This document shows positions 8,825 through 27,780 of a stretch of DNA of 64,000 nucleotides, piece after piece. The notes under the pieces were generated by a model. The model was not told the origin of the DNA, made no database searches, and worked only from the letters and a program-made list of their open reading frames with translations. Position 1 is the first letter of the stretch, and each line of letters begins with the position of its first letter. Made by a program: the position numbers and the translations under genes. This DNA is from Escherichia phage ECML-123-2: sequence record OL631480; one strand, given 5' to 3'.

Positions 8825-9007
8825 TTATTTTGCCCAGGGAGCCCAAGGCGGAGGGTCAAGATGGTATGAAGCTAGTTCTTCTAGAAGAGCATCTGGGGCT
8901 TCAATTCCATAATTCTGTAATACTATACGGTACTCTTTCTTATAATCACTAGAATCATTCTGGTTATTCGTAGAATGATTATCTTCTAACATCTCAAATA
9001 AATCCAT
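8825..9007 (-). CDS. hypothetical protein
   Basis: 60-aa ORF. Confidence 0.45.
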   Translation of the reverse strand: MDLFEMLEDNHSTNNQNDSSDYKKEYRIVLQNYGIEAPDALLEELASYHLDPPPWAPWAK

Positions 9008-9015
9008 ATTAATTC

Positions 9016-9486: not shown

Positions 9487-9643
9487 GTGATTTCCTTTTG
9501 CCTACTAATGGACCATCGGGAATTTTGTTTTCCTGGATATATTTCTCATTTTCTTCCATCATTTTACTGCCAATTTTAAGAAGCAAATCCAGTGCTTCAT
9601 TTGCTTTTGCTTTAGCCTCTTCTAACGTTATATCTTTGTTCAT
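9479..9643 (-). CDS. small hypothetical protein (54 aa), not in ORF track
   Basis: [25 protein letters not shown]...; start overlaps upstream stop, stop overlaps downstream start. Confidence 0.35.
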
Positions 9644-9843
9644 GATTTATCACCATAGATGTCTCTCATCAATTTAAGCGCTGAGCGTTCTAATTTCTTT
9701 TCTTTCTCAGCACTAATCATTGATTTCATCCATTCTTCCGATTCGTTCTGCATTTCTTTATTTGCTTGTTCAACCCAACCATCGTCAATATACATTGAGT
9801 TTGGTCTATTGAACCATTCAAGAATCTTCTTGGGAGCTTTCAT
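9640..9843 (-). CDS. hypothetical protein
   Basis: 67-aa ORF. Confidence 0.5.
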
Positions 9844-10315
9844 TTATTTTACCTAAAACAATAGTAGGAGCATCGTCAAATTTATGAATTTTTAGTAAAT
9901 TTGGATTTAACTTATTCCATAAAGAGGTAATAAAATATGATAGCGCACTTTCGTCCGTAATTATAAATTTATTTCCTTTATCTATTTTCCAATCATATAT
10001 TGAATCATATGAATAGAAGGATAACGGTTTATTATTATAATATGCTTCACTAACATCAATATAGTTAGATTTAGTAAATGCTTGAATTGCCATAAATGGA
10101 GAATTTTGTACAGTTTCAATAATTCCGATCTTTTTAAGTTTTATTTCAACATCTTCTGGAATTGGCATTGAAATAAAATCTTCTACTAGATACATGTTAT
10201 TGTCATATCTTTTATCAATCATTACTGCTACGGTAATTGGAACATCCTTGACAAACGCCATACTAATACTATTGATAGACATTTCAAACAAAATTGCTTC
10301 CATAATTTTCCTCAA
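9818..10315 (-). CDS. hypothetical protein
   Basis: 165-aa ORF. Confidence 0.6.
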
Positions 10316-10653
10316 TCACAAGATGTAGATGAACAACTAGAATCACAAGAACTTCCACATGAATCACCTGCCCATACGTGAACAGGAACATTTGTATCAT
10401 ATGAATCAGAACTAGACTGTGTTTTCTGTGCATTAGATGATGTAGTAGGTGTTGACCAGCGCCAAGGATTTTTATAATATTCTTGGGCTTCTTCATAAGT
10501 CATAGTAACTGCTTCTACTGTTCCATCTCCCATATAAACATACTCAACTACAGTTAAAGGAAGGTAGTCATTTGAAATAGGAACTACACCTTCTCCGGGA
10601 GTTGTAGAGAAAAAATCTGTAAAGAAACTTTTAAACCAATTAAAGATAAACAT
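10312..10653 (-). CDS. hypothetical protein with hydrophobic N-terminus and Cys/Ser-rich C-terminal tail
   Basis: 113-aa ORF ending ...[18 protein letters not shown]. Confidence 0.55.
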
Positions 10654-10859
10654 TACAAAAAGCCTTTCTTGAATTCGACTTGCTTCTCACCATAATCATA
10701 TCGAATTTCTGCATTAAATTCGACAGAACCATCTGCGTACATCATAAATGAATGCACAACAACTTCTGTAGACCATGGTTGTAGTTCATATTTCTTCATT
10801 ACGTGTCGTGAAATGATAATATCTAAATCTTCATTCGGTTTAATCCAACGATTTAACAT
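10653..10859 (-). CDS. hypothetical protein
   Basis: 68-aa ORF with upstream SD and early promoter. Confidence 0.5.
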   Translation of the reverse strand: MLNRWIKPNEDLDIIISRHVMKKYELQPWSTEVVVHSFMMYADGSVEFNAEIRYDYGEKQVEFKKGFL

Positions 10860-10885
10860 AGCGCTCTCCTCTATAAGATAATTCT

Positions 10886-10915
10886 ATTATACCATACTCA
10901 TTTTGGAAAGTAAAC
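10886..10915 (-). promoter_or_regulatory. T4-type early promoter
   Basis: minus GTTTACtttccaaaatgagtatggTATAAT. Confidence 0.5.
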
Positions 10916-10924
10916 CATTTAAAT

Positions 10925-10950
10925 GAAAAAAGGACTCCCGAAGGAGTCCT
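10925..10950 (-). terminator. rho-independent terminator after soc
   Basis: minus ggactccUUCGggagtcc followed by a T-run. Confidence 0.6.
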
Positions 10951-10957
10951 TGAATTA

Positions 10958-11203
10958 TTAACCACCAGTTACTTTCCACAAATCTTCGTTTGCAGCAATC
11001 CATTCAGTACGCTGATTTTCTTCATATACAGTAGTATATGCTGCTTTTTCTGAAGGGAACGTCTGGTAATGAGCACCAGAAATTTTGTGAACGTCAGAAT
11101 AAAGAGGGAAAGCTACTGAAATTTCCTTTCCTTCAATTTTCTTATTTCCATCTAATTTCTGCTCAAATGTTTTGATATTAACATAACCGCGAGTACTAGC
11201 CAT
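10958..11203 (-). CDS. soc: small outer capsid protein Soc
   Basis: MASTRGYVNIKTFEQKLDGNKKIEGKEISVAFPLYSDVHK... matches recalled T4 Soc. Confidence 0.93.
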   Translation of the reverse strand: MASTRGYVNIKTFEQKLDGNKKIEGKEISVAFPLYSDVHKISGAHYQTFPSEKAAYTTVYEENQRTEWIAANEDLWKVTGG

Positions 11204-11271
11204 GTAATTCTCCTTTTATTTAAATTACATGATTATTTATAATAAATTCTCGCGGCTTTTAAGACGAGCTG

Positions 11272-11790
11272 TTAATAACCTCGGTCTTGACGAGCGAAAT
11301 TTTCAGCATTTTTCAGATAATAAAGTTTAAAGATTTCTTCTGCTGTAAGACCAAGACCTTGAAACATGTTCAGAACAAAATGGAGAATATCAATCATTTC
11401 GAATTTGATTTCTAACTGGTCCTGTGGAGACAAATCAGTAATCAGAGTTTCACGACGTTCACCATGCTGCGACTTCCAAGGCTTCCATACAGCAGATGCA
11501 TCTTTTTCACCATTGCTCATACCACCAAGAGAAGTCAGAAGTTCGCGGAATTCATCATCAATATAATCTTTCTGATTACGCAGCCAATCAACAACTTCAC
11601 CTGCAGTAGCCAAATCATCAGGATGACGGTTATATTCAGGTTTATCTTTAGCTAAACGAATCTGCAGAGATTTCTGCATGTCAAGCATTACCTGCAGCGG
11701 GTCTTTTTCATCACCGAGAATATCCCAATATTCATTTTGAGCTTTATCAGCGCCTTCGATCAGTTGACTACATTCGTTAAAGTAAGCCAT
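11272..11790 (-). CDS. 56: dCTP pyrophosphatase gp56 (MazG-like)
   Basis: MAYFNECSQLIEGADKAQNEYWDILGDEKDPLQ...; first ATG at 11790 has SD aaggaaa; track start is TTG. Confidence 0.85.
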   Translation of the reverse strand: MAYFNECSQLIEGADKAQNEYWDILGDEKDPLQVMLDMQKSLQIRLAKDKPEYNRHPDDLATAGEVVDWLRNQKDYIDDEFRELLTSLGGMSNGEKDASAVWKPWKSQHGERRETLITDLSPQDQLEIKFEMIDILHFVLNMFQGLGLTAEEIFKLYYLKNAENFARQDRGY

Positions 11791-11850
11791 TATTTTTCCT
11801 TTCAATTCATTAATAAGTTAAATAATTATACCATTTGAATATATAAGCAA

Positions 11851-12639
<789 letters not shown>

Positions 12640-12740
12640 TCATTTATTGCAGCAAAAATGAATTATACAATTCTTCATCATATGTATTTGATAGTAATAC
12701 TAACACGTTTTGCGATAAATATTAATTTAAAGGAGGACAT

Positions 12741-12941
12741 ATGGTACAAAAATTAATGGCACTTGTTAATGCCATAAAAGGTAATAAAAAACGTATAGCT
12801 TTTACTATTTCTGCTATGATAGGAATTTTACTTTGGAATTTTGTTTTATCGCCAGTTGCTATTGCTCATGGCGTTAGTATTCCAGTAGTTACTCTTGATA
12901 CATTCGTAGATTTAGCATTTGCTTTGGTTGGGTTAATTTAA
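12741..12941 (+). CDS. small hydrophobic protein on the plus strand
   Basis: 66-aa ORF with textbook SD aaaggaggacatATG; two predicted TM segments; convergent with gene 61. Confidence 0.5.
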   Translation: MVQKLMALVNAIKGNKKRIAFTISAMIGILLWNFVLSPVAIAHGVSIPVVTLDTFVDLAFALVGLI

Positions 12942-13966
12942 ATCTTGGCATATTTAGATAGCCTCATTTTAGCCATTAACCCCTGGGCAATATTATTTTT
13001 CATATATTCCATAATTTGTTCAGGGGTTGCACCTTCCTTTCTAATCATATCATTGACATCTTTTGATTTCCAGGGAGATTTATCCCAAAACATAACCCTT
13101 TCTCCTGCATCAACTAATTTAGTCATTCGCTTAATAGTGTCAGGGTGACGAGGTTCATTATCTAAAACCCACACTCGTCTATCTTTAAATGGAACAACTT
13201 CTAGGTCTAATTGACCACCTGTAATAGCTATACCATTTTCAATAAAAAGTGAATCTATAGGTCCTTCTAGAACATATACATCACCATCTTTAACTCGTTC
13301 AACACCGTAAATTTTTGTTGCCTCAGGATAAGCTTTAATGGTGATATATTTTTGAGGAGCATCTTTCTTTAATGCACGTCCTTGAAAAGACTCAGCTTTT
13401 CCGTTAGCATTATAAATTGGAATAACAAGACGAGGCTCAGGTGTTTCCTTTTTATATGTTCCTGGAGCTATACTATTAACTAATTTAGGCCATTCAGTTG
13501 TAAACCAAAGATATTTCCATTTATCCTTTGGAATACAACGAGCTTTTACATATTTTATAATTGGATGGTCTTCCGCCAATTTATCTAATCTGATGCATGA
13601 CGGAAGAGATTTAATTATTTTCTTCTCAGGTTGTTTAGGAAGTTCTTTAGGTTTTTCTACTGGACGACTTTTACCTTTTTCTTTTCTTATTTCAAAGATA
13701 TACTCACGATATAAATCAGGTTCAAACTCCTTTAAATATATTCCGATTGGTGCATGGTAGTTACAGTTATAACAATGAATATTTCCTTCATTATTATCGC
13801 CATAATACCATCCACGGGCTTTATTTTGATCGGTTTTTGAATCTCCACAAACGGGACATCTAAACCGTAATTTAAAAGTTGAACTATTATTTACTTGTGC
13901 GAATTTAGGTAAATGAGCCAATGCACGGTATGCAAACTCATTATCAATCCAAGGTATTGATGACAT
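12938..13966 (-). CDS. 61: DNA primase gp61
   Basis: 342 aa with zinc-binding CPVCGDS...CYNC and primase core; same size as T4 gp61. Confidence 0.92.
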   Translation of the reverse strand: MSSIPWIDNEFAYRALAHLPKFAQVNNSSTFKLRFRCPVCGDSKTDQNKARGWYYGDNNEGNIHCYNCNYHAPIGIYLKEFEPDLYREYIFEIRKEKGKSRPVEKPKELPKQPEKKIIKSLPSCIRLDKLAEDHPIIKYVKARCIPKDKWKYLWFTTEWPKLVNSIAPGTYKKETPEPRLVIPIYNANGKAESFQGRALKKDAPQKYITIKAYPEATKIYGVERVKDGDVYVLEGPIDSLFIENGIAITGGQLDLEVVPFKDRRVWVLDNEPRHPDTIKRMTKLVDAGERVMFWDKSPWKSKDVNDMIRKEGATPEQIMEYMKNNIAQGLMAKMRLSKYAKI

Positions 13967-13968
13967 TT

Positions 13969-14133
13969 TTACTCTTCTTTTTCTTTAGATTCCTCTTTTT
14001 TCTTTTTAGGAATCTGTTCAGGACCTTTATTTACTACAGCACCTGACGTTGTTCCAGTGGAGATATTTTCAGGATTACCACCTGAATCTCCAGCTACCAT
14101 ATCTTCTTTAATAAATTCTTTATATGTTTTCAT
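13969..14133 (-). CDS. small protein (54 aa) at the 61.1 position, not in ORF track
   Basis: MKTYKEFIKEDMVAGDSGG...KKKKEESKEKEE; start overlaps the gene 61 region. Confidence 0.4.
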   Translation of the reverse strand: MKTYKEFIKEDMVAGDSGGNPENISTGTTSGAVVNKGPEQIPKKKKEESKEKEE

Positions 14134-14134
14134 A

Positions 14135-14761
14135 TTAACCTCTATTCATAAAAGCATTAAAAATTTGGTCATCAATAGAAACATCTACTTTAGACTGTTT
14201 TTCTGATGGTAATTCATATCCACATATTACAATTTTGTGATCAATATCAAAATACACAGAAGCAATATGATTAATGATGTTTTCAGTAAAGTCTAAATCA
14301 ACATCAATATCTTTTTGACCACAGCCCAAAGGATAAATAATGCGAGTAATTCGATTATCTTTAACAAAGATTCCACCGACATACTCTGTGCTGCGTTTAA
14401 AGTCTACACGCCGACGAAATGAAAAATATTCAGGCTCTTTATGAGCTCGGCTCATAGGGCACAACGAATAACTAGAATAAGAGATGTCAAATCCTACGCC
14501 TTCAATATGAACTAAATTGTCATGATTAAACCAATTATAATCATATGCCAAGTCCATTAGATTGTCATATGTGAAAGGCACCGGATTAACATCATTGGTC
14601 ACAAGCATATAATTAGCAACTGCTATAATTTCATTATTTTTAACGAATACAAACCGTGATTGATGTGAATGACCTGGACCTGCGTTTTCACGATTAATGA
14701 TATAACACTGGGCACCTTTATATTTGTACGTGTCTTTACACTTGTGCATTTGATAAAGCAT
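14135..14761 (-). CDS. hypothetical protein at the 61.2 position (the T4 gene reported as anti-DarT factor AdfA, by position only)
   Basis: 208-aa ORF, second gene after 61 towards 41. Confidence 0.6.
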   Translation of the reverse strand: MLYQMHKCKDTYKYKGAQCYIINRENAGPGHSHQSRFVFVKNNEIIAVANYMLVTNDVNPVPFTYDNLMDLAYDYNWFNHDNLVHIEGVGFDISYSSYSLCPMSRAHKEPEYFSFRRRVDFKRSTEYVGGIFVKDNRITRIIYPLGCGQKDIDVDLDFTENIINHIASVYFDIDHKIVICGYELPSEKQSKVDVSIDDQIFNAFMNRG

Positions 14762-15054
14762 TATTCACCTACCACTTCAGCGATGATATTTTTATTATTA
14801 AAGTTTTTATCGCAATACAGAACATAATTATACTGCATTACACCACCAGACTTAAGCTGTTTTTGCACTTCAGCTTTCATTTCAGGACGATCACGCTCAA
14901 CGATATTCATAATATCCGCTTCAATTTGAATTTCAACTTCAGTCTGATCTGCAGTCATAGACCATTCGCACAAATCTTTGTCATAACCCGCCATAGCAGG
15001 CTGAGCAGCGCAAGAAGATAAAGCAAAAATTGCAGCAAAGATAAATTTTTTCAT
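14761..15054 (-). CDS. secreted 97-aa protein at the 61.3 position, Spackle-like by position and size
   Basis: MKKFIFAAIFALSSCAAQPAMA signal peptide; 97 aa equals recalled T4 Sp size. Confidence 0.6.
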   Translation of the reverse strand: MKKFIFAAIFALSSCAAQPAMAGYDKDLCEWSMTADQTEVEIQIEADIMNIVERDRPEMKAEVQKQLKSGGVMQYNYVLYCDKNFNNKNIIAEVVGE

Positions 15055-15114
15055 GATAATCTCCTCAGTAGTTTATGTTTATATAGTATCTCAATTTCCA
15101 ATAAAAGTAAACAG

Positions 15115-15372
15115 TTATTTTAAAACTTCTGCATAATCACATGTTACAAACTGTTTCTCTAACTTGGCGATTTTACGAAAGTATCTTTTGCATTGACGAA
15201 TCTGTCGCTTTGTAGGGCGCACAGCAAACTTAATAAATTCCACTCGACCAAATGGAGGGCTTTCTTCTGCCGGAATATCTAATACTAATTCCCACGTATC
15301 TGCAATAAGTGCTTTGAATTGAGTATTTTTCCTGACATTATACGGAGTAGGTTTAAATAAAACGATATGCAT
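15115..15372 (-). CDS. hypothetical 85-aa protein at the 61.4 position
   Basis: internal ATG at 15372 has SD gagga; longer track ORF overlaps dmd. Confidence 0.5.
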   Translation of the reverse strand: MHIVLFKPTPYNVRKNTQFKALIADTWELVLDIPAEESPPFGRVEFIKFAVRPTKRQIRQCKRYFRKIAKLEKQFVTCDYAEVLK

Positions 15373-15373
15373 A

Positions 15374-15556
15374 TTATCCTCGGCAATCCACTTCACATAC
15401 CTTCTTGTCATCAATGAAAGCTTTAACTAGTGCTTTATTAACTTCAGCATATTGAGTAGTAGCCCATTGAACGTCATCTTTCATCATTGTGATCTCTTTA
15501 GTAAACATGCTTTCATTCTTAAACCACCCCATAAAAACTACCTTTACCAATTCCAT
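15374..15556 (-). CDS. dmd: Dmd-like antitoxin (discriminator of mRNA degradation)
   Basis: 60-aa ORF MELVKVVFMGWFKNES... directly downstream of gene 41, as T4 dmd. Confidence 0.65.
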   Translation of the reverse strand: MELVKVVFMGWFKNESMFTKEITMMKDDVQWATTQYAEVNKALVKAFIDDKKVCEVDCRG

Positions 15557-15569
15557 AACAATCTCCTCA

Positions 15570-15599
15570 TTTAACCAACAAGACTACTATACCATAGTC
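15570..15599 (-). promoter_or_regulatory. T4-type early promoter
   Basis: minus GTTTACaagctgacaagactatggTATAGT, with inverted repeat caagacta/tagtcttg around the -10. Confidence 0.5.
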
Positions 15600-15614
15600 T
15601 TGTCAGCTTGTAAA

Positions 15615-17042
15615 CTAAAATTTTAATTCATTTGCCAAAGCATCTAACTGAGCTCGAGTCGATTCGTTTCTTTGATAGCGATTCTGCTCAGCTTGTATCT
15701 GTTGTGAACCTGCTACCTCACTCACTTCAGTTGGAGTAGAATCTTGTTCAATTTCTACCCATTTCTGATTTCCTTTTTGAACACCCATCAAAAACTTATT
15801 CCATTTATTCTTATCACCATATCGTGATTTGATTTGCTTAATAAGTTGTTGTTCAGCAGCTGCTAACTCCTCGGTTTCAATGACCGCAAGCATAAAATCA
15901 GCTGTTGCTGGAAGACCGGCAGATTCTGCAATATCGCTCATGTTAACATCAGAAGAATCCCAAGCTTGTTTACCAACCTGTGCTGCAGTCCAAAGAACAG
16001 TTTCGGTTTCAACAGCAAGAGCACGTAATTCCTCTGCAATGGCTTTAACAGTTGTGTAACTATTTTCTGAGTAAACTCTAATGCGGCAAGATTTACAAAT
16101 ACCCAGATAGTCGACAATAATGATTGTTGGAACAAAATTCTTCTTGAGCTTTAATTCGTTTAAAAGCGATCGAAATGTATTAGCATCTGCTCCACCAGTA
16201 GGATACTGTTTAACTATTAAACGACCGAGAGTAGATTTCTCGCGCCATTTTTCCATTTTTCCTTTATACTCAGCGTAAGAAATATGCCCGTCATCAATGT
16301 CATCAAGAGAAACATCAAGCATATTAGCATCAATACGTTTAGCACAGACTTCTTCTGCCATTTCCATGGAGATATAAAGAACGTTATGACCAAGCTGTAA
16401 ATAATCCGCTGCTAATGAACAAAGTCCTAATGATTTACCAACGTTAACACCAGCCATTAAAACGTTCAGTGTTCCTGTCTCAGCTCCGCCTTTAGTAATT
16501 TTGTTTAGAATTCTGAGTTTAAATGGAACTTTACGAGCTTTATTCATATAAGATAGCCAGCGTGCTTCGTAGTCATCCATCCAATCATGACCAACGTAGC
16601 TATCAAATGAAATTGATAATGCTTGACGCATGATATCAGGAATAGCACCTACATCTGGCATTTTCTTATTTCGTTTTTCCGGAGGAAGCTCAGCATTAGT
16701 TTGAATTTCGATTATTTTAGACGTAGCATTAAACATCGCCCTTTGCTGAACATATTTTTCTGTTTCTTTTACTAACCAACTGTGGTCTTCTGGAGAATCG
16801 GCTAGTTTTGAAATAAGTGTTTTTACACCAGAATATTCTGTTTCAGTAAATGAACTATTTTCTAATGCAACATTTAACGCATTAATAGATGGAACGCTAT
16901 GATACTCATTAACATGAGATTTAATTAATTTGAACGTATTTTTAGCTGGACCACTTTCAAAATATTCTGAATCCATATATGGCCAAACTTTTGAAAAATA
17001 AGCTTGATCAAATATGAGATGAGAAAGAATAATTTCTACCAC
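15615..17042 (-). CDS. 41: replicative DNA helicase gp41 (DnaB family)
   Basis: 475 aa, Walker A GVNVGKS; same size as T4 gp41. Confidence 0.95.
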   Translation of the reverse strand: MVEIILSHLIFDQAYFSKVWPYMDSEYFESGPAKNTFKLIKSHVNEYHSVPSINALNVALENSSFTETEYSGVKTLISKLADSPEDHSWLVKETEKYVQQRAMFNATSKIIEIQTNAELPPEKRNKKMPDVGAIPDIMRQALSISFDSYVGHDWMDDYEARWLSYMNKARKVPFKLRILNKITKGGAETGTLNVLMAGVNVGKSLGLCSLAADYLQLGHNVLYISMEMAEEVCAKRIDANMLDVSLDDIDDGHISYAEYKGKMEKWREKSTLGRLIVKQYPTGGADANTFRSLLNELKLKKNFVPTIIIVDYLGICKSCRIRVYSENSYTTVKAIAEELRALAVETETVLWTAAQVGKQAWDSSDVNMSDIAESAGLPATADFMLAVIETEELAAAEQQLIKQIKSRYGDKNKWNKFLMGVQKGNQKWVEIEQDSTPTEVSEVAGSQQIQAEQNRYQRNESTRAQLDALANELKF

Positions 17043-17051
17043 ACTTACTCC

Positions 17052-17414
17052 TTAAAAGAATTTAAACTTTTTCTTTGACCTTTTATTAAATGCATCTTGT
17101 AGTTGCATTGTAATACATTTTTCTACATGAGGAGCTAACTCAGCTTTTCTTTCTTGGTCAAGAACAGCAAAGTCCATTACGACTTTTCCATCAACCCAAT
17201 CTAATTTTGTCACATACACAATGTGTGTAGAACCATCTTCTAGTTTAATGACAATCTCCTGGATAACATTTTCCATGGCAGATTTAATTATCTTAAGAGA
17301 TTCATTAAAAAGACGTTCTTTTCTTTCTTCTTCCCCCTCCGAAGAGGGGGATTCATCGATAATTTCTAGATCTAAGTCTAAATCATCTTTATTCATTAAA
17401 TTCTTCCATATCAC
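17052..17414 (-). CDS. 40: gp40 head vertex assembly chaperone (by position)
   Basis: 120-aa ORF between 41 and uvsX. Confidence 0.6.
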   Translation of the reverse strand: MIWKNLMNKDDLDLDLEIIDESPSSEGEEERKERLFNESLKIIKSAMENVIQEIVIKLEDGSTHIVYVTKLDWVDGKVVMDFAVLDQERKAELAPHVEKCITMQLQDAFNKRSKKKFKFF

Positions 17415-18570
17415 TTAACTGTTCGAGGTCAGTTTCTAAATCAGCAGCTGATTTACTTTTACTTTCTGGAGATTTAAATTTTTCAACCTTTGAGTTAATC
17501 AATTCATCAACTTCAGCTTCAACAATTTCATTACTATCAATAGCACCTAACTGATAAGCACGTTTAATAGCATCTCGGAATGGTTGATGCTTAAATAAAG
17601 GACCCCAGAATGTAGTGCAGTTAGTATCTTTTGCACGCCAAGATTTTTCTTCGCGAATCATCTCGCCGGTTTCTTCGTCAAGAAATTCACGAGCATACCA
17701 ACCATTCTTAGGTTTTACTACAAATCCTAATTCTAGAGCCATATCTAACAATCCAGAATAAGGATCGATACCACCGTCAAATTTAACATCAATAAAGAAT
17801 TTACTTTTTTCTTTAACGGTACGAGATTTTTCTACATTTAGAACAAATTGATACCCCTGAAGATCAGAACCATCTTTAATCTGACGTTTACCGATAATGA
17901 ATACAGTATCAGCCGAATACATTACGCCTGTACCACCTGTCATCACGGTTTTACTAAACATTTCAATTGTTTCAATTGTATGGTTAACCGCAACACACGG
18001 AATATTTTTAATGCTAAAATAAGGAGTAACGATACGGAATAATGACTTCAGTGATTTAGCACGAGTCATATCTGCCACAGATTTTTCATTCAAGGCATCT
18101 TCCGTTTCTTTCTTAGAAGCCATATTACCAATTGAGTCGATGAATACTATAACCTTTTCACCACGCTCAATAGCTTCAAGCTGATTCACCATATCAATTT
18201 TCAGCTGTTCAACTGATTGAATTGGCGTATGAATTACACGTTCCGGGTCAACTCCCATGGATCGCAAATAAGCTGGAGTAATACCAAATTCGCTATCATA
18301 GAATAGACAAACCGCGTCAGGATATTTGTTCAAATATGCCGCAACCATAGTCAAAGACATATTTGATTTAAAGTGTTTAGAAGGCCCTGCGAAAATAGTT
18401 AAACCAGACTGCATACCGCCATCAATCGCACCAGAAATAGCAATATTCAGCATTGGAATTTTTGTACGGATTACATCCTTTTCATTAAAGAATTTAGATG
18501 TAGTCAGTTCAGCAGTCATTTTAGAAGTGGAAGCTTTAATCAAACGGGATTTTAAATCTGCAATAGACAT
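17389..18570 (-). CDS. uvsX: UvsX recombinase (RecA-like)
   Basis: 393 aa with GPSKHFKS P-loop; matches recalled T4 UvsX. Confidence 0.93.
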   Translation of the reverse strand: MSIADLKSRLIKASTSKMTAELTTSKFFNEKDVIRTKIPMLNIAISGAIDGGMQSGLTIFAGPSKHFKSNMSLTMVAAYLNKYPDAVCLFYDSEFGITPAYLRSMGVDPERVIHTPIQSVEQLKIDMVNQLEAIERGEKVIVFIDSIGNMASKKETEDALNEKSVADMTRAKSLKSLFRIVTPYFSIKNIPCVAVNHTIETIEMFSKTVMTGGTGVMYSADTVFIIGKRQIKDGSDLQGYQFVLNVEKSRTVKEKSKFFIDVKFDGGIDPYSGLLDMALELGFVVKPKNGWYAREFLDEETGEMIREEKSWRAKDTNCTTFWGPLFKHQPFRDAIKRAYQLGAIDSNEIVEAEVDELINSKVEKFKSPESKSKSAADLETDLEQLSDMEEFNE

Positions 18571-18647
18571 TCATTTTTTCCATAGGCATCATTATATTTT
18601 CCTCACTGGTTAAAGATAGAGTAATTATAACACAATAAATTTAGGCA

Positions 18648-19496
18648 TTAATCAACTGCTATTGGATGAATAGCATTAAACTTATGAAATGCTTCTGATT
18701 TTTCTTTACGTGAAACGCACATGCGAAGAACCTTTAATGGCTCGTCTTCTTCACCCAACGATTTTCGTTTTTCAATATTAGAAGTTTTCCAACGAGCTTG
18801 CTCTGGAAACTCTCTATTGATTTGCTCAAGCGCTCTATTATGTTTAGAATTACTACGAATTGAACTGCACCCGCCAGGAGCTTGTGCTTTTCCAGATACA
18901 ACCAGATATTTGAACAAGGCCAAATGCGGATAACCTTGATTAATTAAATTGAGAAATGCATACATATCTTCGCACAAATCAATTTTTCCATACCCAATTT
19001 GTTCTGTCGTAAGTTTTCCAAGGTCATACCATGTATTCGTGAATCCATATGAATTTTCACGATAATTACCCCAAGATGAAGTAATTTTAAAAATTGGTAG
19101 ACGAGCATGACCGTGATAATACCCGCAATCCATGGCATCTTCAACATATTGAATCAATTCATAGAACTGTTCACGAGTTAATTGATTAATTTTATCTACG
19201 CGCCGTTTATCGTCTCTCTTTCGTATTGAACTCATACGGATAGTAGTATCATCGTCAATCATCCAGATTCGTTGACCTGCATACATATCAGTAATTGCTT
19301 TACGAGTACCGGCAATTCCATTAACATCATCAGGAATAGTTACAATTTTAGCTCTAGACCCATAGGCATCATAATAAGCTTTTTCTTCGTGTTCACGCAC
19401 TACAATATGGGGTTCATAATCAGTCGGAAACATATCAAGGGCAGAAACTGCCCCTACACGTTGATAGCTTGGAATTACGAATTGAATCATTTCCAC
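18648..19496 (-). CDS. DNA glycosyltransferase at the beta-gt locus, probably T2/T6-type beta-glucosyl-HMC alpha-glucosyltransferase
   Basis: 282 aa, shorter than and unlike 351-aa T4 beta-gt; has DxD-like MIDDDT; lies between uvsX and 42. Confidence 0.55.
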   Translation of the reverse strand: MEMIQFVIPSYQRVGAVSALDMFPTDYEPHIVVREHEEKAYYDAYGSRAKIVTIPDDVNGIAGTRKAITDMYAGQRIWMIDDDTTIRMSSIRKRDDKRRVDKINQLTREQFYELIQYVEDAMDCGYYHGHARLPIFKITSSWGNYRENSYGFTNTWYDLGKLTTEQIGYGKIDLCEDMYAFLNLINQGYPHLALFKYLVVSGKAQAPGGCSSIRSNSKHNRALEQINREFPEQARWKTSNIEKRKSLGEEDEPLKVLRMCVSRKEKSEAFHKFNAIHPIAVD

Positions 19497-20227
19497 TCAC
19501 CGTTATAATCTTTTTTCACAATATGAGTTTCGCCAGTATTCCACCAATGATCAACCAAGTAAAAATGACGAGAATATACATGAAGACTTCCAACATTCCA
19601 TATAATAGAACCTGCTTTATACTGACGAGTTGAATCGCCTGCATTCAAATCAGATACTAATTTATCTAATACGTATTTTTGCCATGCATAATCATTACGG
19701 AATCCGAAGACCACGTCATTTGAGCGCATGCTTACTACTGCATTGACTTTCTTATCACGAATCAGGTACTGTACTGTATTAGTACACATGAAATCTGACA
19801 TACCATCTTTATTGTAGTCAAATTGCATGGATGGACGAGTATAAATCATGATACCACGCCGAGAATCAGGATTTTGACCAAGTTCAGCTAAACACATATC
19901 ATACTGGGCATAGTTATCTTCTGACCAAATAGCCCAACCATAATTCGAGTTAATTTCGCCTTTAGAAGATGCTACCTGCTGCCAAATCTTTGGTGTTTCA
20001 CCTGGAATATCTTTAACAAACAAGCTCTTAGATTTATACCATTCAAGTTCGCGCTGAATGTATTCATCATTAAGAGCGCCAAAAATAAACGGTTCATCTG
20101 CTACAAATGATGCGCCAATAATTTCAATAGTTTTAACACCGGTTTTATCAACTACGAAATCTTTTTCTTTTAATGCAAGCCCCAAATGAAGACGGATTTC
20201 TTCAACTGTCATAGAGTCACTAATCAT
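19487..20227 (-). CDS. 42: dCMP hydroxymethylase gp42
   Basis: 246 aa, thymidylate-synthase-like; same size as T4 gp42. Confidence 0.95.
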   Translation of the reverse strand: MISDSMTVEEIRLHLGLALKEKDFVVDKTGVKTIEIIGASFVADEPFIFGALNDEYIQRELEWYKSKSLFVKDIPGETPKIWQQVASSKGEINSNYGWAIWSEDNYAQYDMCLAELGQNPDSRRGIMIYTRPSMQFDYNKDGMSDFMCTNTVQYLIRDKKVNAVVSMRSNDVVFGFRNDYAWQKYVLDKLVSDLNAGDSTRQYKAGSIIWNVGSLHVYSRHFYLVDHWWNTGETHIVKKDYNGEWK

Positions 20228-20344
20228 TTAAACCTCAATTGATACATTCATATTTAACTTGTAACAGTAATAAACCCCACCCTATGATAAGAGTTGGAAT
20301 CATAGCAGGAACTGTTACGCTATAGTATATACTTATTATAATCA

Positions 20345-20370
20345 TCAAGATTAAAAGCAACACTGTTATA
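20345..20370 (-). promoter_or_regulatory. MotA-dependent middle promoter candidate for gene 42
   Basis: minus TTGCTTTTA, 11 bp, TATAAT. Confidence 0.4.
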
Positions 20371-20380
20371 ATTTTGCTTT

Positions 20381-20632
20381 TCATTCCTTCTCTCTGATGA
20401 TAATTACTTGATTTGGCTGTGCAGACTTTTTAGTTTCACCCGCAATTGACCAAATAAATGTAATAAACCAACCAATAATTGACCAGTTAAACAGTAAAGA
20501 TGTGAAAAAGATTCCTACTGTCGATTTTGACCCACGCATCAAGGCGATGAACCATGGAAGCATGTATATAATAATAGCCAACACACCTGAAACTAAAACC
20601 ATAAAAATTGAACCTGCTACTAAAGTTTCCAT
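20381..20632 (-). CDS. imm: Imm, membrane protein for immunity to superinfection
   Basis: 83-aa two-TM protein between 42 and 43, same size as T4 Imm. Confidence 0.8.
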   Translation of the reverse strand: METLVAGSIFMVLVSGVLAIIIYMLPWFIALMRGSKSTVGIFFTSLLFNWSIIGWFITFIWSIAGETKKSAQPNQVIIIREKE

Positions 20633-20639
20633 GTTTTCC

Positions 20640-21020
20640 TCACTTAGTCAAATTTTTTACACATGAATTATAAGAATTCACTACATACTCCATCGGAGCA
20701 TTTTTACCAGTACGCCATTGGTAATTATTAGCCCAATTAGCCCAAATTTCGGCGCAGTAGTTTTCAATTTTTTCTTCGCGTGTAATTACATCAGAATTAC
20801 GATATGCTTGAGCAGATTCATCTGGACGAATAGCTTCGTCAAAATTCGCCTGCATTTGTTCGACTGTTTGCTTTGGAGCTTCTTTATAACACTTGACATT
20901 AGGATTATAAAACTTGCTTGAACAGTTTACAATTTTTCCTGCATCAGACTGATTTACTACCGGTCCTTGAGCTACACAACCAGTAAGACCTAATGCAATA
21001 ACCAAAATAGCGATTTTCAT
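20640..21020 (-). CDS. predicted lipoprotein (imm.1 position)
   Basis: 126 aa with MKIAILVIALGLTGC lipobox signal. Confidence 0.6.
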   Translation of the reverse strand: MKIAILVIALGLTGCVAQGPVVNQSDAGKIVNCSSKFYNPNVKCYKEAPKQTVEQMQANFDEAIRPDESAQAYRNSDVITREEKIENYCAEIWANWANNYQWRTGKNAPMEYVVNSYNSCVKNLTK

Positions 21021-21030
21021 AATAATTTCC

Positions 21031-21279
21031 TCAAATGCAAGTAGTAATTACTCCAGTAGTGCTTATGCAGGTATTACCCATTTGCACACCTAAAGATCCA
21101 TTTGTATTCACATGAAGATTATCATCAATTTTAACTGATATTTTACCATTAGTGTGAATAACGGTGCTAGATTCAATCACAGGTTGAGTATCATTTTCAA
21201 CACTAACAAATGGAACTGCTGCTAATGCAACTAAACAAACTGCTAAGCATCCCATAACAATTTTCATTTCATTCTCCAA
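21031..21279 (-). CDS. small secreted/membrane hypothetical protein
   Basis: 82 aa with hydrophobic N-terminus; early promoter directly upstream. Confidence 0.55.
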   Translation of the reverse strand: MENEMKIVMGCLAVCLVALAAVPFVSVENDTQPVIESSTVIHTNGKISVKIDDNLHVNTNGSLGVQMGNTCISTTGVITTCI

Positions 21280-21304
21280 ATCCGTATCAGTAGTTGATAG
21301 TTGT

Positions 21305-21334
21305 ATAGTACCATAGAAGAACAGGGATGTAAAC
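21305..21334 (-). promoter_or_regulatory. T4-type early promoter (conserved family member)
   Basis: minus GTTTACatccctgttcttctatggTACTAT with conserved upstream ATTCCCTAAAAATTTTTTCACAAAACT. Confidence 0.5.
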
Positions 21335-21417
21335 AGTTTTGTGAAAAAATTTTTAGGGAATCCAAAGGGTCCAGAATCATCTCTTTTTCATAAGTATAGA
21401 TTTATATTACTTGTATG

Positions 21418-21442
21418 AAAAAGGGACCTGGAGGTCCCTAGA
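21418..21442 (-). terminator. terminator after gene 43
   Basis: minus agggaccUCCaggtccct followed by tttt. Confidence 0.55.
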
Positions 21443-21451
21443 TTTATTCTA

Positions 21452-24148
21452 TCAGCCAAACAGGAAGTCTAACGAAGCTTTTTCTTCATAGTCCATGCCA
21501 GCCGATTCACACATACCCGCAAGCGGTTTAACAAACGATTTTTGGAACAAAGTTGAGTGGTCAATCCAAGATAGCACATCAGAACGAATTTCTTTTGGAA
21601 GTTCTGTACCCGATGGCCAAGCAATGCACTTGTCACCAAATGGATTTCCTTCACGTAATGGAAGAACCATTACTTTATTTCCATCCAAAATTGGAGCTAC
21701 ACCCAGACCACTAACAGCTCGACGATAAGTTAGCACACCGCGAATATGGAACGGGCATTTAAATCCTGGCCAACCTTTATCATCATATTTCGCTATATCG
21801 TTCGCAGTTTTTACTTCAGCAATAACTTTATAGTCAAGTTGACGATATTCTTTCTCGAAGTTCTTGTAGTATTCTTGGACAGACTCTTCACCTTCTTGAA
21901 GAATACGACGAATACTTTCTTCGAGAGCTTCTTGCACTGCTTTTGGTGTTGAACTCTGCTGAGTTTCCATACCCATGATTTTTAGATGCGGTTCAGCAAA
22001 TCGTTTATCTTCCATATCATAAACGTTCAGAGCATAACGCTTTTTCGCTTTCCAAAATCCACCAACACCCTTTGAACCAAGTGGAGGGCAAGAAATAGCT
22101 TCACGGTCCATATGCATCAGATGCTCGCGGTTATTCATATAATCACATAACTCACGATATGCAACATCAATCATAGGTTCCATCTTTTTCTTACCGAACT
22201 GATTCATGAATTCAACTAAATCGTTCTGCTCTTTGAATCGGTCAAGACCAACTTTTTCAATAACTTTATCTACACAAACATATACCGAATCAGTATCACC
22301 TGCTGCGATGAAATCTTCGCCATTAGTTCCGCATACTTTATTCAGATATTCATTAATTTTACGAGCAATCCACTGAATACCAACTTGGCCGAAAATTGTG
22401 ATAGCAGTAGCATTTCGCAAATCATAGTAACGGAAATGAATATTACCAAGAGCACCATAAAGACTGTTAATAAGAATTTTACGGTTCAGCTGATTTGTGT
22501 TAGCAAGTGTAGCTGCTTTTTCACATTCTTCGATCAGACTATTAAGAACAGATTCAGTATAATTCGATAGTTCATTTAAGAAATCATCACTGAACTTAAC
22601 ATATCGTTCAACTTCTGGTTTAGTTGAACAAGACCCTGCGCCTTTCATAATAATCTTTTTAATAGCTTCGGCATTCATTTCTTCAGCGAACATTTTCTTT
22701 TTCCAGTCTTTACGCTGGAAAAATACTTTAGCGATTTCCTTTGGAATGATACCTTCTTGATGTTTATCATACATCCATCCATTCGGAGAACAAGAATATT
22801 CATCACTCGGTTTAGGAGCTGTTCCTGCGATATATTCATGAATTGGATGAACTTTAAATTGTCCACGAATAGTTTCAGGACTAATGTTAACCTGACGAAT
22901 AATGCTAGGATATAGAGACGTCAAGTCAAAACTCATAATATATCGACGAGCAATTGGTTTAGGTTCAAACACAAATGCACCCGGAAAACTTTGTTTAACG
23001 TGCGAACCTTGTTGAGGAATAACCTTATGTTCACCTTTCAATGAGTTAAAAATAATAGCATCCCAGGTTTTAATAGGACTCATTACACCAGAAAAAGGCA
23101 TTTTAGCATAATAAGACATACTTAAAACTAGATCGATAAACCCGCGAATTTTATCAATTGCTTGAACTGATTCTACGTCAATGATGTTATAACTAATGTA
23201 TCGTTGATGATTAGTCTCACGAAGTTTATTAATAGGACCATCATACGGTAATTTACCTTTTTTGGTTTCATGTTGAGCAACTGATTCCAAAGAGAATGAC
23301 GGCAAATTAGTAAAAGCGAATTTCTTGTACAAATCTAAATAATCAAGAATAGATACGCCATCAATAGAATAAATTTCTTTGCTACCGTACATATTTTGAA
23401 TTAGTTTAGATTTTACTCGACCGATTGGAGAGAAGCGTTTCATACTACGTTCACCGAGAACCATTTTAACACGATTCATGATATACGGAACGTCAAATCC
23501 CTCAATATTCCAACCAGTAAAAATAGCAGGTCGTTTCTGTTCCCAGAGATTGATATATTCCATGAGCATATCACGCTCATTATCGAATGGCATATAAATT
23601 ACTCGGTCAAGAATTTCTTGAGGAACTTCATCACCACCTTCACAGTCAAGCTTAGCAGCTAACTTTGCATCCCATTTTGATACTGAACCGTACATTGAAT
23701 TCAAAAGGTCGAAAACATAAAAACGATCATCAATTGAATCATAATGAGTGATAGCATCAATTTCATATTCTGCTTTCATTGGGTCAGGAAATTTATCACC
23801 AGTAACCTCAATGTCACAGTTAGCTACACGAACAAATTTTCGGTCATAAACAATTTCTGAACCATATGTATCACTGATATAAGCGAGTTTAAAATCGTTC
23901 ATACCGAGAGCTTCGAGACCGATGTCTTCCATTCGTTTCATCCAATCTCGAGCATCTTTCATTGATGGAAATTTTTGAGGAGCGCAGTTTTTACCATAGA
24001 TGTCTTTGTATTTTGACTCTTCCTTACAATGCCTAAACATAGTCGGAAGATATTCTACTTCACGAGTACGTTCCTTTCCGTTTTCATCAATATAACGTTC
24101 AACAATGTTATTTCCGACTGTTTCAATAGAGATATAAAATTCTTTCAT
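21452..24148 (-). CDS. 43: DNA polymerase gp43 (family B)
   Basis: 898 aa, exonuclease and polymerase motifs; same size as T4 gp43. Confidence 0.97.
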   Translation of the reverse strand: MKEFYISIETVGNNIVERYIDENGKERTREVEYLPTMFRHCKEESKYKDIYGKNCAPQKFPSMKDARDWMKRMEDIGLEALGMNDFKLAYISDTYGSEIVYDRKFVRVANCDIEVTGDKFPDPMKAEYEIDAITHYDSIDDRFYVFDLLNSMYGSVSKWDAKLAAKLDCEGGDEVPQEILDRVIYMPFDNERDMLMEYINLWEQKRPAIFTGWNIEGFDVPYIMNRVKMVLGERSMKRFSPIGRVKSKLIQNMYGSKEIYSIDGVSILDYLDLYKKFAFTNLPSFSLESVAQHETKKGKLPYDGPINKLRETNHQRYISYNIIDVESVQAIDKIRGFIDLVLSMSYYAKMPFSGVMSPIKTWDAIIFNSLKGEHKVIPQQGSHVKQSFPGAFVFEPKPIARRYIMSFDLTSLYPSIIRQVNISPETIRGQFKVHPIHEYIAGTAPKPSDEYSCSPNGWMYDKHQEGIIPKEIAKVFFQRKDWKKKMFAEEMNAEAIKKIIMKGAGSCSTKPEVERYVKFSDDFLNELSNYTESVLNSLIEECEKAATLANTNQLNRKILINSLYGALGNIHFRYYDLRNATAITIFGQVGIQWIARKINEYLNKVCGTNGEDFIAAGDTDSVYVCVDKVIEKVGLDRFKEQNDLVEFMNQFGKKKMEPMIDVAYRELCDYMNNREHLMHMDREAISCPPLGSKGVGGFWKAKKRYALNVYDMEDKRFAEPHLKIMGMETQQSSTPKAVQEALEESIRRILQEGEESVQEYYKNFEKEYRQLDYKVIAEVKTANDIAKYDDKGWPGFKCPFHIRGVLTYRRAVSGLGVAPILDGNKVMVLPLREGNPFGDKCIAWPSGTELPKEIRSDVLSWIDHSTLFQKSFVKPLAGMCESAGMDYEEKASLDFLFG

Positions 24149-24185
24149 AGATATTCCTTAGTTTATAGCCCGAGTTATTAGGCTC
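24149..24185 (-). promoter_or_regulatory. gene 43 translational operator (hairpin plus SD bound by gp43)
   Basis: minus GAGCCUAAUAACUCGGGCUAUAAACUAAGGAAUAUCUAUG matches recalled T4 gp43 operator hairpin. Confidence 0.55.
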
Positions 24186-24206
24186 TTGATATATTATACT
24201 CCAAAT

Positions 24207-24226
24207 AAGGGGCCGAAGCCCCTTGC
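24207..24226 (-). terminator. UUCG-tetraloop hairpin upstream of gene 43 leader
   Basis: aaggggccgaagcccctt palindrome. Confidence 0.5.
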
Positions 24227-24448
24227 TTAAATTAGTACTATTTGTCGGTGAAAAATTGTCATTCCATCTGCATTAATTGACTTAACGACTGCAGTAAAGT
24301 GTTTTTGTTCTGGGTGAATTAATTTTTGAAATTCTACCTGAAATTTTAGTTGAAGGTTTTCTGGTAAATCGAAAAGTGTTTCTGTTGCAGAAAGATTATA
24401 TTTTTCTTTAAGAGACGCCATGTATTCTTGCGGAGTTATAGCAGTCAT
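24227..24448 (-). CDS. hypothetical protein (73 aa from internal ATG)
   Basis: ORF between regA and 43; ATG one nt after the regA stop. Confidence 0.4.
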   Translation of the reverse strand: MTAITPQEYMASLKEKYNLSATETLFDLPENLQLKFQVEFQKLIHPEQKHFTAVVKSINADGMTIFHRQIVLI

Positions 24449-24449
24449 A

Positions 24450-24818
24450 TTAATTACCAATCGTATATTTAGGAACGAGTTTCCATTCATGTTTTTGTTT
24501 AAAAGAAATAACTCGGAAATTATTAGTTAAATCTTTCATAAAAGTTCTTTGACCAGGAACGATTTCAATCAGTCCCCAATCTTCTAACAGCCATGCAATC
24601 GAATCACGACGAACTTCATCTTCTTCTGTCATTTCAACTTGGCAACCATCCATACGAAGCATTTCTTTAAAATGAACGATATAGTATAGTCCTTTTTTCT
24701 GAAGAATATGACAGGACTGATACAGAACTTTATCTTTATTATTAGCAATTCCCATACGAGTCAAAGTTTCTTTTACTTTCAGAAAATCTTCAGGTTTTTT
24801 AAGAGTAATTTCAATCAT
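24450..24818 (-). CDS. regA: RegA translational repressor
   Basis: 122 aa MIEITLKKPEDFLKVKETLTRMGIANNKDKVLYQSCHILQKKGLYYIVHFKEM... matches recalled T4 RegA. Confidence 0.92.
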   Translation of the reverse strand: MIEITLKKPEDFLKVKETLTRMGIANNKDKVLYQSCHILQKKGLYYIVHFKEMLRMDGCQVEMTEEDEVRRDSIAWLLEDWGLIEIVPGQRTFMKDLTNNFRVISFKQKHEWKLVPKYTIGN

Positions 24819-24819
24819 T

Positions 24820-25383
24820 TTACCATTCCAATGCTAGTTTTTTGAGTTGTTTCTGTTCTTTTACGTTCTTAGTCACTTCTTTCAAAAAATCATCCGTGAC
24901 TAAACCTTTTAGTTCTTTTAATACTAAAGGAAGTTTTCCATTTTTAGTAAGAATTGATTTATAGTTAATTGCATCATTTGTATTAACTTGATACCGCTTA
25001 GCAAGTAACTTAATAATCAATACTTCGGTGGAATCTTCAACCAGTTTTGCCCATTTACCATATCTTTTACCACGAGGAACTGCAGCCATTAGATAATTAA
25101 AATGAGCTTCATCACTTAATCCAGAACCGATTAAATTCATAGCATATACAGCTGGCATGCACTCTGGAAATTGTGATAATGCATTTTCAACCATGAATTT
25201 TGAATAATCTTTTTGAGCAATAGAGCATTTAGTTTTATTATTAATAGCTCCAATTATTTCAAAAAATTCATTTTCAGCTTTTTCTTTAAAAGAATCAGCA
25301 GCGGATTGGACAGCTGTCCAATCTTTTGAATACCAAGCAACTTGATGCTCGTTTAATTGAATATCATCTTCAAATAAGCTCAT
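24820..25383 (-). CDS. 62: clamp loader small subunit gp62
   Basis: 187 aa at the T4 position and size. Confidence 0.9.
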
Positions 25384-25384
25384 A

Positions 25385-26344
25385 TCACTTCCACTGCATT
25401 TCGCATGCTAATTGAATGAAAAGATAAGCTAAATGCAATTCAGTATTAGCTGCAATACCATGATACTGATTATTTTCGCCTACAATTTCGTACATACGAA
25501 TAATACTCTGCGGAGTTACACGTGAATAGATTTCTTCGGCAAGTTTACCAACGAACCACGAATAATCAGCTGCATATTTTGGTGCTAAAGCTCTGAGTTG
25601 TTTAACATCTTTATTTTTGAGAGACTCAAGAACATCATCAATAGCACCACGATCGTTAGTAACCAGTGATAAAATACCAGCATCCAAAACACCTTTAGAT
25701 GAATAACTATCGAGCTCGCCAATAGTTTTACGAAAATCAGGAAAATTCTTTTTAACCAAAGCTGCTACAACTTTCATATCAGCTATAGCAATTCCTTCAT
25801 GCTTACAGATTTCAGTCAATCGACGAATCATCTGCTTCATCATTTCAATTTTATCTTCATCGGTCGGTTGACCGAATGTAATAACTCGGCAGCGTGACTG
25901 AAGCGGTTTAATAATACCATCAATATTGTTAGCAGTAATAATAATACTACAGTTTGAACTATAAGCTTCCATAAAGGAGCGAAGATGTCGCTGAGATTCT
26001 GCTAAACCTGAACGGTCAAATTCATCAATAACGATTACTTTTTGACGACCATCAAATGAAGCGGCGCTGGCAAAATTAGTCAAAGGACCACGAACGAAAT
26101 CAATTTTACAATCTGAACCATTCACAAACATCATATCAGCATTTACATCATGACACAATGCTTTTGCTACAGTTGTTTTACCTGTTCCTGGAGAAGGAGA
26201 ATGAAGAATAATATGTGGAATCTTACCTTTACTTGTAATAGATTTAAAGGTTTCTTTATCAAAGGCGGGAAGAATACATTCATCGATAGTAGATGGACGA
26301 TATTTCTGTTCAAGAATGTGTTCTTTTTCATTTACGGTAATCAT
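25385..26344 (-). CDS. 44: clamp loader large subunit gp44 (AAA+)
   Basis: Walker [11 protein letters not shown]; first ATG at 26344 gives 319 aa as in T4. Confidence 0.93.
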
Positions 26345-26376
26345 AATTTCCTCATTCAAGTTTTAGTGTAAATTAT

Positions 26377-26395
26377 AAAGGGCCGAAGCCCTCTA
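26377..26395 (-). terminator. UUCG-tetraloop hairpin between 45 and 44
   Basis: aagggccgaagccct palindrome. Confidence 0.5.
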
Positions 26396-27082
26396 TTAAA
26401 AATCATGGGTAGAATCAGCTTCAAGAGCTACTACATAATTCGCATGTTCACCTTCAAATTTAGCAGCGCCTTGTTTACCTTTTGCCCAAAGCAGAAGTTT
26501 ATAATTTCCTGGTTGCATTTTCATATTTGCCATATTGATAATGAAATTAAATGTGTTTTCACCATCATAATCACCAAGAGTCAAAGAATATTTAACACGA
26601 GTCAAAGCAGAATCTTCTACTTTATTAAAACCGTTAATTACGATTTTACCTTCTTTTACTGTGATAGCAATTGTATCAATCTGCAGACCGCGAGATACAC
26701 GCAACAGCTGTTGAAGGTCTTCAGCTTTAATTTCGGTAACAACAGATGCTACCGGGAATGGAATTGGTTTATTAGGAGCAACTACTGTACTCGGATCGGC
26801 TGCTGGCCAAAAAATTGTTGAACGGGCATCAGCAATTTTAATATTTCCATCTTCTGACTGGGAAATTTCTGCATCATCATTAACTAGCGACAGAATACCG
26901 AGAAAACCGTTCAAATCGTAAATTGCTACATCAAAATCAATAACGTCAGAAATATTTGCTTCCGCGTAAGTTGTACCATTAACTGCGCGAGTCATAATAA
27001 ATTGACCGGATTTAAGCATAATGCCAGAGTTAATAGTAGCGAAATTTTTAAGCAGAGCAGTAGTATCTTTAGACAGTTTCAT
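26396..27082 (-). CDS. 45: sliding clamp gp45
   Basis: 228 aa, same size and position as T4 gp45. Confidence 0.92.
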   Translation of the reverse strand: MKLSKDTTALLKNFATINSGIMLKSGQFIMTRAVNGTTYAEANISDVIDFDVAIYDLNGFLGILSLVNDDAEISQSEDGNIKIADARSTIFWPAADPSTVVAPNKPIPFPVASVVTEIKAEDLQQLLRVSRGLQIDTIAITVKEGKIVINGFNKVEDSALTRVKYSLTLGDYDGENTFNFIINMANMKMQPGNYKLLLWAKGKQGAAKFEGEHANYVVALEADSTHDF

Positions 27083-27137
27083 GTAATTTCCTTCAATTCA
27101 AATGAGATTTAATTTTATAACTAATTTAATAAAGCAA

Positions 27138-27527
27138 TTAACGATTAAAATCAGCCGCAATTGTTTCCGCAACAATTTGAGCAGCAACAATTAGACGTTC
27201 ATCTGCATTACCGCAATAATCATCTTCAAGACGTTCACCACATGAAGTCATAATAAATTTAGCACCGGCGTTTAGGGATTCTGTAGTATGTTTGCGCATT
27301 AGTTCAATCCATTTATTACTTACTTCACGATCGATAGCTTCATAATACGCATGACGAGCAGGTGCAGATTTAATTTTGTTCTGAATAACTTCCATTGCGT
27401 TATCAGAAAGAGACAAAACCCATGCTCGACGAATTTTATTTTGGTTTTGTGGATTTGATTCAGAACGCACGTGTTTTGGCTGAATATCTTTTACATCAAC
27501 AGTATAATTCACAGTAATTTTAGTCAT
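27138..27527 (-). CDS. rpbA: RNA polymerase binding protein RpbA
   Basis: 129 aa at the T4 rpbA position between 45 and 46. Confidence 0.75.
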
Positions 27528-27536
27528 AATACACCT

Positions 27537-27725
27537 TTAGTCATAATAATCAGTAACAGTCCAAGCTTCATTTCTATTGGACATTATTTTTGTATATTCT
27601 GCTTTAAATGCATTCCTAAGCATAGATTCAGTAACTATATGCTCTTCATTAGAAAAATTATTTCTCAGAATATATCGTTTTATTTCAGGAATAGTTAATA
27701 GATGCTGTCCGGTTGAATATTCCAT
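27537..27725 (-). CDS. hypothetical protein (45.2 position)
   Basis: 62-aa ORF. Confidence 0.5.
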   Translation of the reverse strand: MEYSTGQHLLTIPEIKRYILRNNFSNEEHIVTESMLRNAFKAEYTKIMSNRNEAWTVTDYYD

Positions 27726-27742
27726 GTTTTTCCTCCATAGAG

Positions 27743-27768
27743 ATTATACTCTAATAAATTAAAGCATA
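27743..27768 (-). promoter_or_regulatory. MotA-dependent middle promoter candidate
   Basis: minus aTGCTTTAa, 11 bp, TATAAT, upstream of 45.2. Confidence 0.45.
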
Positions 27769-27780
27769 ATCTCTTATAAA

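Follow-up and report, generated by a model that had tools for sequence, protein, structure and literature searches.

Which glycosyltransferase lies between uvsX and gene 42 of Escherichia phage ECML-123-2 (OL631480), and what sugars would it place on the 5-hydroxymethylcytosine (hmC) of the phage DNA? A preliminary description of the stretch analysed here (64 kb in all, hereafter the window) raised the question by setting this slot against that of T4. It was correct that T4 encodes the 351-aa beta-glucosyltransferase (beta-gt) there, although it left out segA, which lies in the same T4 interval. [quoted passage not shown]

Identity of the gene

The listed open reading frame occupies 18648..19496 on the minus strand, flanked by uvsX and gene 42, and would encode 282 aa if translation began at the GTG at 19496. 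The frame is real, as described earlier, but its length is probably not: the most likely start is the ATG at 19490, two codons downstream of the GTG, which gives 280 aa. This ATG is preferred because it forms an ATGA overlap with the stop codon of gene 42, because the same start is annotated in phages U115 and T2, and because the family alignment opens at M-I-Q-F. The identical overlap is annotated in U115, T2, EL, Geo, Solly and TB37; on account of it, ba-gt and gene 42 are probably co-transcribed and may be translationally coupled, so that the two would be co-expressed. The base composition of the ba-gt locus is ordinary for the surrounding region, and a promoter and terminator scan of the locus returned counts equal to the shuffled expectation. 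The spacer between uvsX and ba-gt (18571..18647) is only 77 bp long; it contains AATGCCTAAA, then 11 nt, then TATAAT, an arrangement that by eye resembles a MotA-type middle promoter, putatively for uvsX. Coordinates are collected in Table 1.

Table 1. Positions in the window of the ba-gt gene, its main sequence features, its neighbours and the genes of the modification pathway
Feature	Position	Strand	Basis or remark
Gene 56 homolog, dCTPase/dUTPase, keeps unmodified dC out of DNA	11275..11790	-	tblastn
dam methyltransferase homolog	11854..12630	-	98.8% identical to BGP dam
uvsX, downstream flank of the slot	17389..18570	-	ORF; U115 annotation
ba-gt (ggt / TAGT), beta-glucosyl-HMC-alpha-glucosyltransferase	18648..19490	-	280 aa plus stop; homology, Pfam, PHROG, predicted fold
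D79-D80-D81 codons (GAC GAT GAT), DxD-type metal / nucleotide-sugar binding motif	19248..19256	-	role inferred from GT-A mechanism
R11 codon (CGT)	19458..19460	-	family-invariant; His in both T2 records
ATGA overlap, ba-gt start / gene 42 stop	19487..19490	-	sequence
Gene 42, dCMP hydroxymethylase, makes hm-dCMP, the modified-base precursor	19487..20227	-	tblastn; 97.1% identical to T4 gp42
alpha-gt, DNA alpha-glucosyltransferase, first glucose	31103..32305	-	400 aa; PF11440, E=1.8e-237

At the nucleotide level, the locus matches Escherichia phages U115 and EC101 with 100% identity across 1301 bases. More than 440 further Tequatrovirus records match the 1.3-kb locus at 95-99% nucleotide identity, and in many of them the gene is annotated as beta-glucosyl-HMC-alpha-glucosyltransferase. 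The protein aligns without gaps to the ba-gt of T2 (273/280 residues identical, 97.5%) and of T6 (271/280, 96.8%), and is 99.3% identical to the enzyme of EL, Geo and BGP and 98.2% identical to that of Solly and TB37. It matches PHROG 842, 'beta-glucosyl-HMC-alpha-glucosyltransferase', at 2.5e-89. Pfam family PF20691 (TET-associated glycosyltransferase, TAGT) is matched with 39.9 bits, which passes the gathering cut-off of 27.5 bits, and the match extends over residues 5-209, equivalent to profile positions 2-205 of 205. NCBIfam holds no model for either ba-gt or alpha-gt. The protein is therefore homologous along its full length to the characterised enzymes of T2 and T6, and it stands in their context, with gene 42 adjoining and with alpha-gt and the hmC pathway genes present in the window. 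The shared features comprise the length of 280 aa, the position between gene 42 and uvsX, the ATGA overlap, the invariant motifs, the alpha-gt partner and the lack of a beta-gt. The differences amount to 7 residues from T2 and 9 from T6: the window enzyme does not have the T2-specific H11 and S251 or the T6-specific N40, G55 and H106, and its V50, I89, K95, R97 and I101 are common to U115, EL, Geo and BGP.

The identity of the gene, the absence of beta-gt from the window, the partner genes, the predicted fold class and the conserved motifs are established in this analysis. The finding is correct yet ordinary: the enzyme is a known one, near-identical relatives of it have been studied by experiment, and hundreds of genomes already carry the annotation.

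Predicted fold and reaction

A word-indexed protein search gave 11 family members, and an alignment of 10 sequences was built. Its invariant positions are P7-S8-Y9, R11, D79-D80-D81, D175, G206-G207, S209 and R212, all of which are intact in the window protein. The DxD-like motif reported earlier is present as D79-D80-D81, and its invariance extends to a member with only 31% identity.

The AlphaFold2 model of the protein has a pLDDT of 73.7 and a pTM of 0.75, with residues 126-138 and 202-211 weak (pLDDT <50); the prediction is only moderately confident because the alignment is shallow. In Foldseek, the model matches TarP, WrtF, AvpGT, RmlT, TarS and K4CP with a probability of 0.99-1.0, with TM-scores to the PDB matches of 0.3-0.44. 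A sequence search of the PDB with E up to 1 returned no relative of ba-gt. The model points to a GT-A/GT2-like fold carrying an acidic DxD-type motif, in keeping with a published AF3 model of the T6 enzyme, which has a GT-A fold placed as a sister group to GT2 and TarP (6H1J) as its closest cellular structure (PMC13216743, 2026). The cellular GT2-family enzymes TarP, TarS, RmlT and K4CP, which are inverting GT-A transferases, share only 7-18% identity with ba-gt; they act on teichoic acid or polysaccharide, whereas the acceptor of ba-gt is a sugar on DNA, and ba-gt differs further in being a small single domain.

As a small GT-A (GT2-like) inverting transferase, ba-gt would most likely work by a metal-dependent inverting transfer, in which O6 of the alpha-linked glucose on hmC accepts the glucose of UDP-glucose. 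By analogy with the general GT-A mechanism, roles can be proposed for individual residues. D79-D80-D81 presumably grips the divalent metal together with the diphosphate of UDP-glucose, and the N-terminal strand and loop P7-S8-Y9-x-R11 presumably helps to bind the nucleotide. E174/D175 or the loop G206-G207-x-S209-x-x-R212 are candidates for the catalytic base or the acceptor site.

Partner genes and the extent of gentiobiosylation

The gene 56 homolog has 71.5% identity over 172 aa to the BGP dCTP pyrophosphatase (tblastn, E=1.4e-82). Judged by homology, gp42, gp56, dam and alpha-gt, alongside ba-gt, form the complete T2/T6-type set. Together, gp56 and gp42 would ensure that the DNA is replicated with hmC in place of cytosine. 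The alpha-gt product would then move glucose from UDP-glucose onto the hydroxymethyl group in alpha linkage, and ba-gt would add a second glucose, again from UDP-glucose, to the first by a beta-1,6 bond, yielding gentiobiosyl-hmC. Since there is no beta-gt, hmC sites missed by alpha-gt would remain unglucosylated; in characterised relatives such sites amount to about 25-33%.

Measurements on close relatives agree with this scheme. HPLC-MS of virion nucleosides from the Durham collection gave hmC, alpha-glucosyl and alpha-gentiobiosyl forms at about 1:2:2 in EL, BGP and Geo, and about one-third hmC and two-thirds gentiobiosyl in Solly, TB37 and others; beta-glucosyl-hmdC occurred in none of these phages, and the authors credited the second glucose to TAGT, the gene in synteny with T4 beta-gt (PMC13390438). 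In T6 delta-ba-gt, alpha-glucosyl-hmC alone is left (PMC11078745). The gentiobiosyl product has thus been shown in the literature for near-identical enzymes, and for the window protein it is predicted; by analogy with the 98.2-99.3%-identical relatives and with T6 delta-ba-gt, the protein would carry out UDP-glucose-dependent beta-1,6 glucosylation of alpha-glucosyl-hmC. The suggestion of a T2/T6-type glucosylation pattern made in the preliminary description is supported by the identities to T2 and T6, by the PHROG 842 match and by the gentiobiosyl-hmdC in the DNA of the 99.3%-identical relatives.

The alpha-gt gene had been called T4-like. This holds at the family level (PF11440), but the allele is that of T2, with 99.2% identity as against just 91.5% to T4 and T6, whose own alpha-gt proteins agree at 98.8%. 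Two alleles with about 91% identity between them can be recognized: one in T2, Solly, TB37 and the window, the other in T4, T6, EL and Geo. The differences are clustered at residues 47-52 and 254-276, a pattern that resembles recombinational mosaicism.

How much gentiobiosyl-hmC a phage makes varies widely among those with near-identical ba-gt: about 5% in T2, 40% in EL/Geo, two-thirds in Solly/TB37 and 72% in T6. Both transferases were compared across phages of measured DNA composition. The alpha-gt allele was considered as the cause of this variation and rejected, as the two do not track each other; the T2-type allele spans T2 (5%) and Solly/TB37 (about 67%), and the T4/T6-type allele spans T6 (72%) and EL/Geo (about 40%). 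In ba-gt itself, R11H together with P251S is confined to T2 among the compared phages, and A202S together with Q203H to EL, Geo and BGP, whose enzyme, at the same locus, differs from that of the window at these two residues only. R11H/P251S is a candidate cause of the low fraction in T2, going by the alignment. H11 is found in two independent T2 records, and all other aligned members have Arg, the one at 31% identity included; S251, where the others have Pro, likewise occurs in both T2 records.

The gentiobiosyl fraction of the window phage cannot be read from its sequence. Nevertheless, since its ba-gt has neither the T2-specific pair nor that of the EL group, the comparison suggests that the phage perhaps does not share the low fraction of T2. 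The strongest alternative to a fully working gene is that it is intact but, like that of T2, almost unexpressed or of low activity, leaving a few per cent of gentiobiosyl-hmC and otherwise alpha-glucosyl-hmC and hmC. We consider this unlikely, even though T2 offers a direct precedent, with a full-length, 97.5%-identical ba-gt and only about 5% gentiobiosyl-hmC (PMC13390438, PMC11078745), and even though the window alpha-gt is the T2 allele. R11H, at an otherwise invariant position, and P251S are both absent from the window enzyme, and the T2-type allele of alpha-gt is no sign of a low level, since Solly and TB37 reach about two-thirds gentiobiosyl-hmC with the same allele. It is conceivable, though we hold the idea only tentatively, that the ratio of mono- to di-glucosylated hmC is set by a few ba-gt substitutions (R11H with P251S; A202S/Q203H) and not by the alpha-gt allele. 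The window phage, like U115, combines an EL-type core without S202/H203 with a T2-type alpha-gt, and its ratio would discriminate among these candidate substitutions.

Other specificities, relatives and host defence

A gentiobiosylating ba-gt being the preferred reading, there is little room for a TAGT enzyme that uses another donor or acceptor here (hmC directly, or a different sugar) and leaves the DNA without gentiobiose. The family is functionally heterogeneous, with homologs that pair with alpha-GT, pair with beta-GT or stand alone (PMC13216743), and homologs of 65% identity adjoin beta-gt homologs in CC31, Merlin and S16-type phages. Against such a switch, which we regard as very improbable, the window protein is 97-99% identical to enzymes of phages with measured gentiobiosyl-hmC, keeps every invariant family position and has alpha-gt as its partner.

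As for the T4 enzyme, a BLASTP comparison of the window protein with T4 beta-gt (NC_000866) yielded chance fragments only, with a best E of 4.1, and when the whole window was searched with T4 beta-gt by tblastn, nothing better than E=1.4 came up. The Pfam scan of the window protein returned TAGT alone and no PF09198, and the protein shows neither the homology nor the GT-B fold of two Rossmann domains that mark the T4 beta-glucosyltransferase family. The earlier statement that the slot is not occupied by the T4 enzyme is borne out, as the full-length homology that had been named as counter-evidence is missing. What the two have in common is the genomic slot and the general purpose of hypermodifying hmC DNA; both use UDP-glucose as donor, and both are inverting. 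They differ in acceptor, which is hmC itself for T4 beta-gt and alpha-glucosyl-hmC for ba-gt, in length (351 aa versus 280 aa), and in sequence and fold class, which are unrelated. That the frame is a highly diverged T4 beta-gt homolog producing beta-glucosyl-hmC, as the shared slot might lead one to suppose, is refuted by BLASTP and by a predicted fold that is GT-A-like as opposed to the GT-B fold of both T4 alpha-GT and T4 beta-GT (PMC13216743), and with the DNA of relatives free of beta-glucosyl-hmdC (PMC13390438) it retains practically no probability.

The usual combination in phages is alpha-GT with TAGT, and it is unlikely that a beta-gt lies elsewhere in the genome, outside the window, since alpha-GT and beta-GT occur together in just 6/753 phage genomes (2026 NAR survey, PMC13216743). 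A ba-gt homolog is present in 688 phage records, reaching >=90% identity in 472; for T4 beta-gt the corresponding counts are 126 and 29. The arrangement in the window is the majority state of the genus, and the alpha plus beta pair of T4 is the exception. A third pairing, of beta-gt with TAGT and not of alpha-gt with TAGT, is seen in CC31, Merlin, S16, Melville and other T4-like phages of Enterobacter, Citrobacter and Salmonella. There, a TAGT homolog sharing about 65% identity with the window protein directly adjoins a beta-gt homolog that shares about 49% with the T4 enzyme.

The preliminary description also anticipated a changed sensitivity to host defence, and for T6 this has been published: in vitro, the Brig1 glycosylase leaves wild-type T6 DNA undegraded, and loss of ba-gt makes T6 more sensitive to Brig1 (PMC11078745). 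The alpha, beta and gentiobiosyl forms are all reported targets of GmrSD (PMC13216743), and free hmC is the target of Brig3 (bioRxiv 10.64898/2026.02.25.707755). The DNA of the window phage is predicted to contain hmC, alpha-glucosyl-hmC and gentiobiosyl-hmC, with no beta-glucosyl-hmC and with a substantial unglucosylated fraction. GmrSD/BrxU-type enzymes would be expected to cut all three forms, Brig1 to attack the alpha-glucosyl intermediate and spare gentiobiosyl DNA in vitro, and Brig3-type glycosylases to attack free hmC. The glucosylation pattern is of help in phage choice and restriction mapping, and is already established for the genus.

Several smaller observations concern the records and the neighbourhood. 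The two public T6 records each carry a different ba-gt lesion, and the window gene is intact at both sites (19461..19463, 19248..19256). In MH550421.1, codon 10 is an amber TAG, which is why the CDS is annotated from Met20, and in AP018814.1 one Asp of D79-D80-D81 is lost in frame, leaving 279 aa; either lesion may be a loss-of-function mutation peculiar to the stock, or a mistake in sequencing. Two homing-endonuclease genes of T4 are missing from the window, namely segA, which T4 has between uvsX and beta-gt, and mobB, which lies beside its alpha-gt (corresponding intervals 18571..18647 and 30927..31102), and tblastn with T4 segA found no match in the 64-kb window, the interval between uvsX and ba-gt included. 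The window differs from EL, Geo and BGP in its T2-type alpha-gt and in having, at 12653..12715 on the minus strand, a 21-aa remnant of the 'restriction-enzyme-like' gene, which the Durham study reported as exclusive to those three phages (PMC13390438). In the gap between gene 42 and imm lies a predicted 49-aa membrane ORF (20235..20384, minus strand) that is annotated in U115, EL, Geo, Solly and TB37; in the T4, T2 and T6 records, the corresponding stretch of about 150 bp bears no annotation. Finally, no single database record matches 8001..33000 of the window throughout, the best being Shigella phage ESh29 at 99.1% over 25 kb; set beside the 100% identity of the ba-gt locus to U115 and EC101, this fits the mosaic recombination that is usual among Tequatroviruses.
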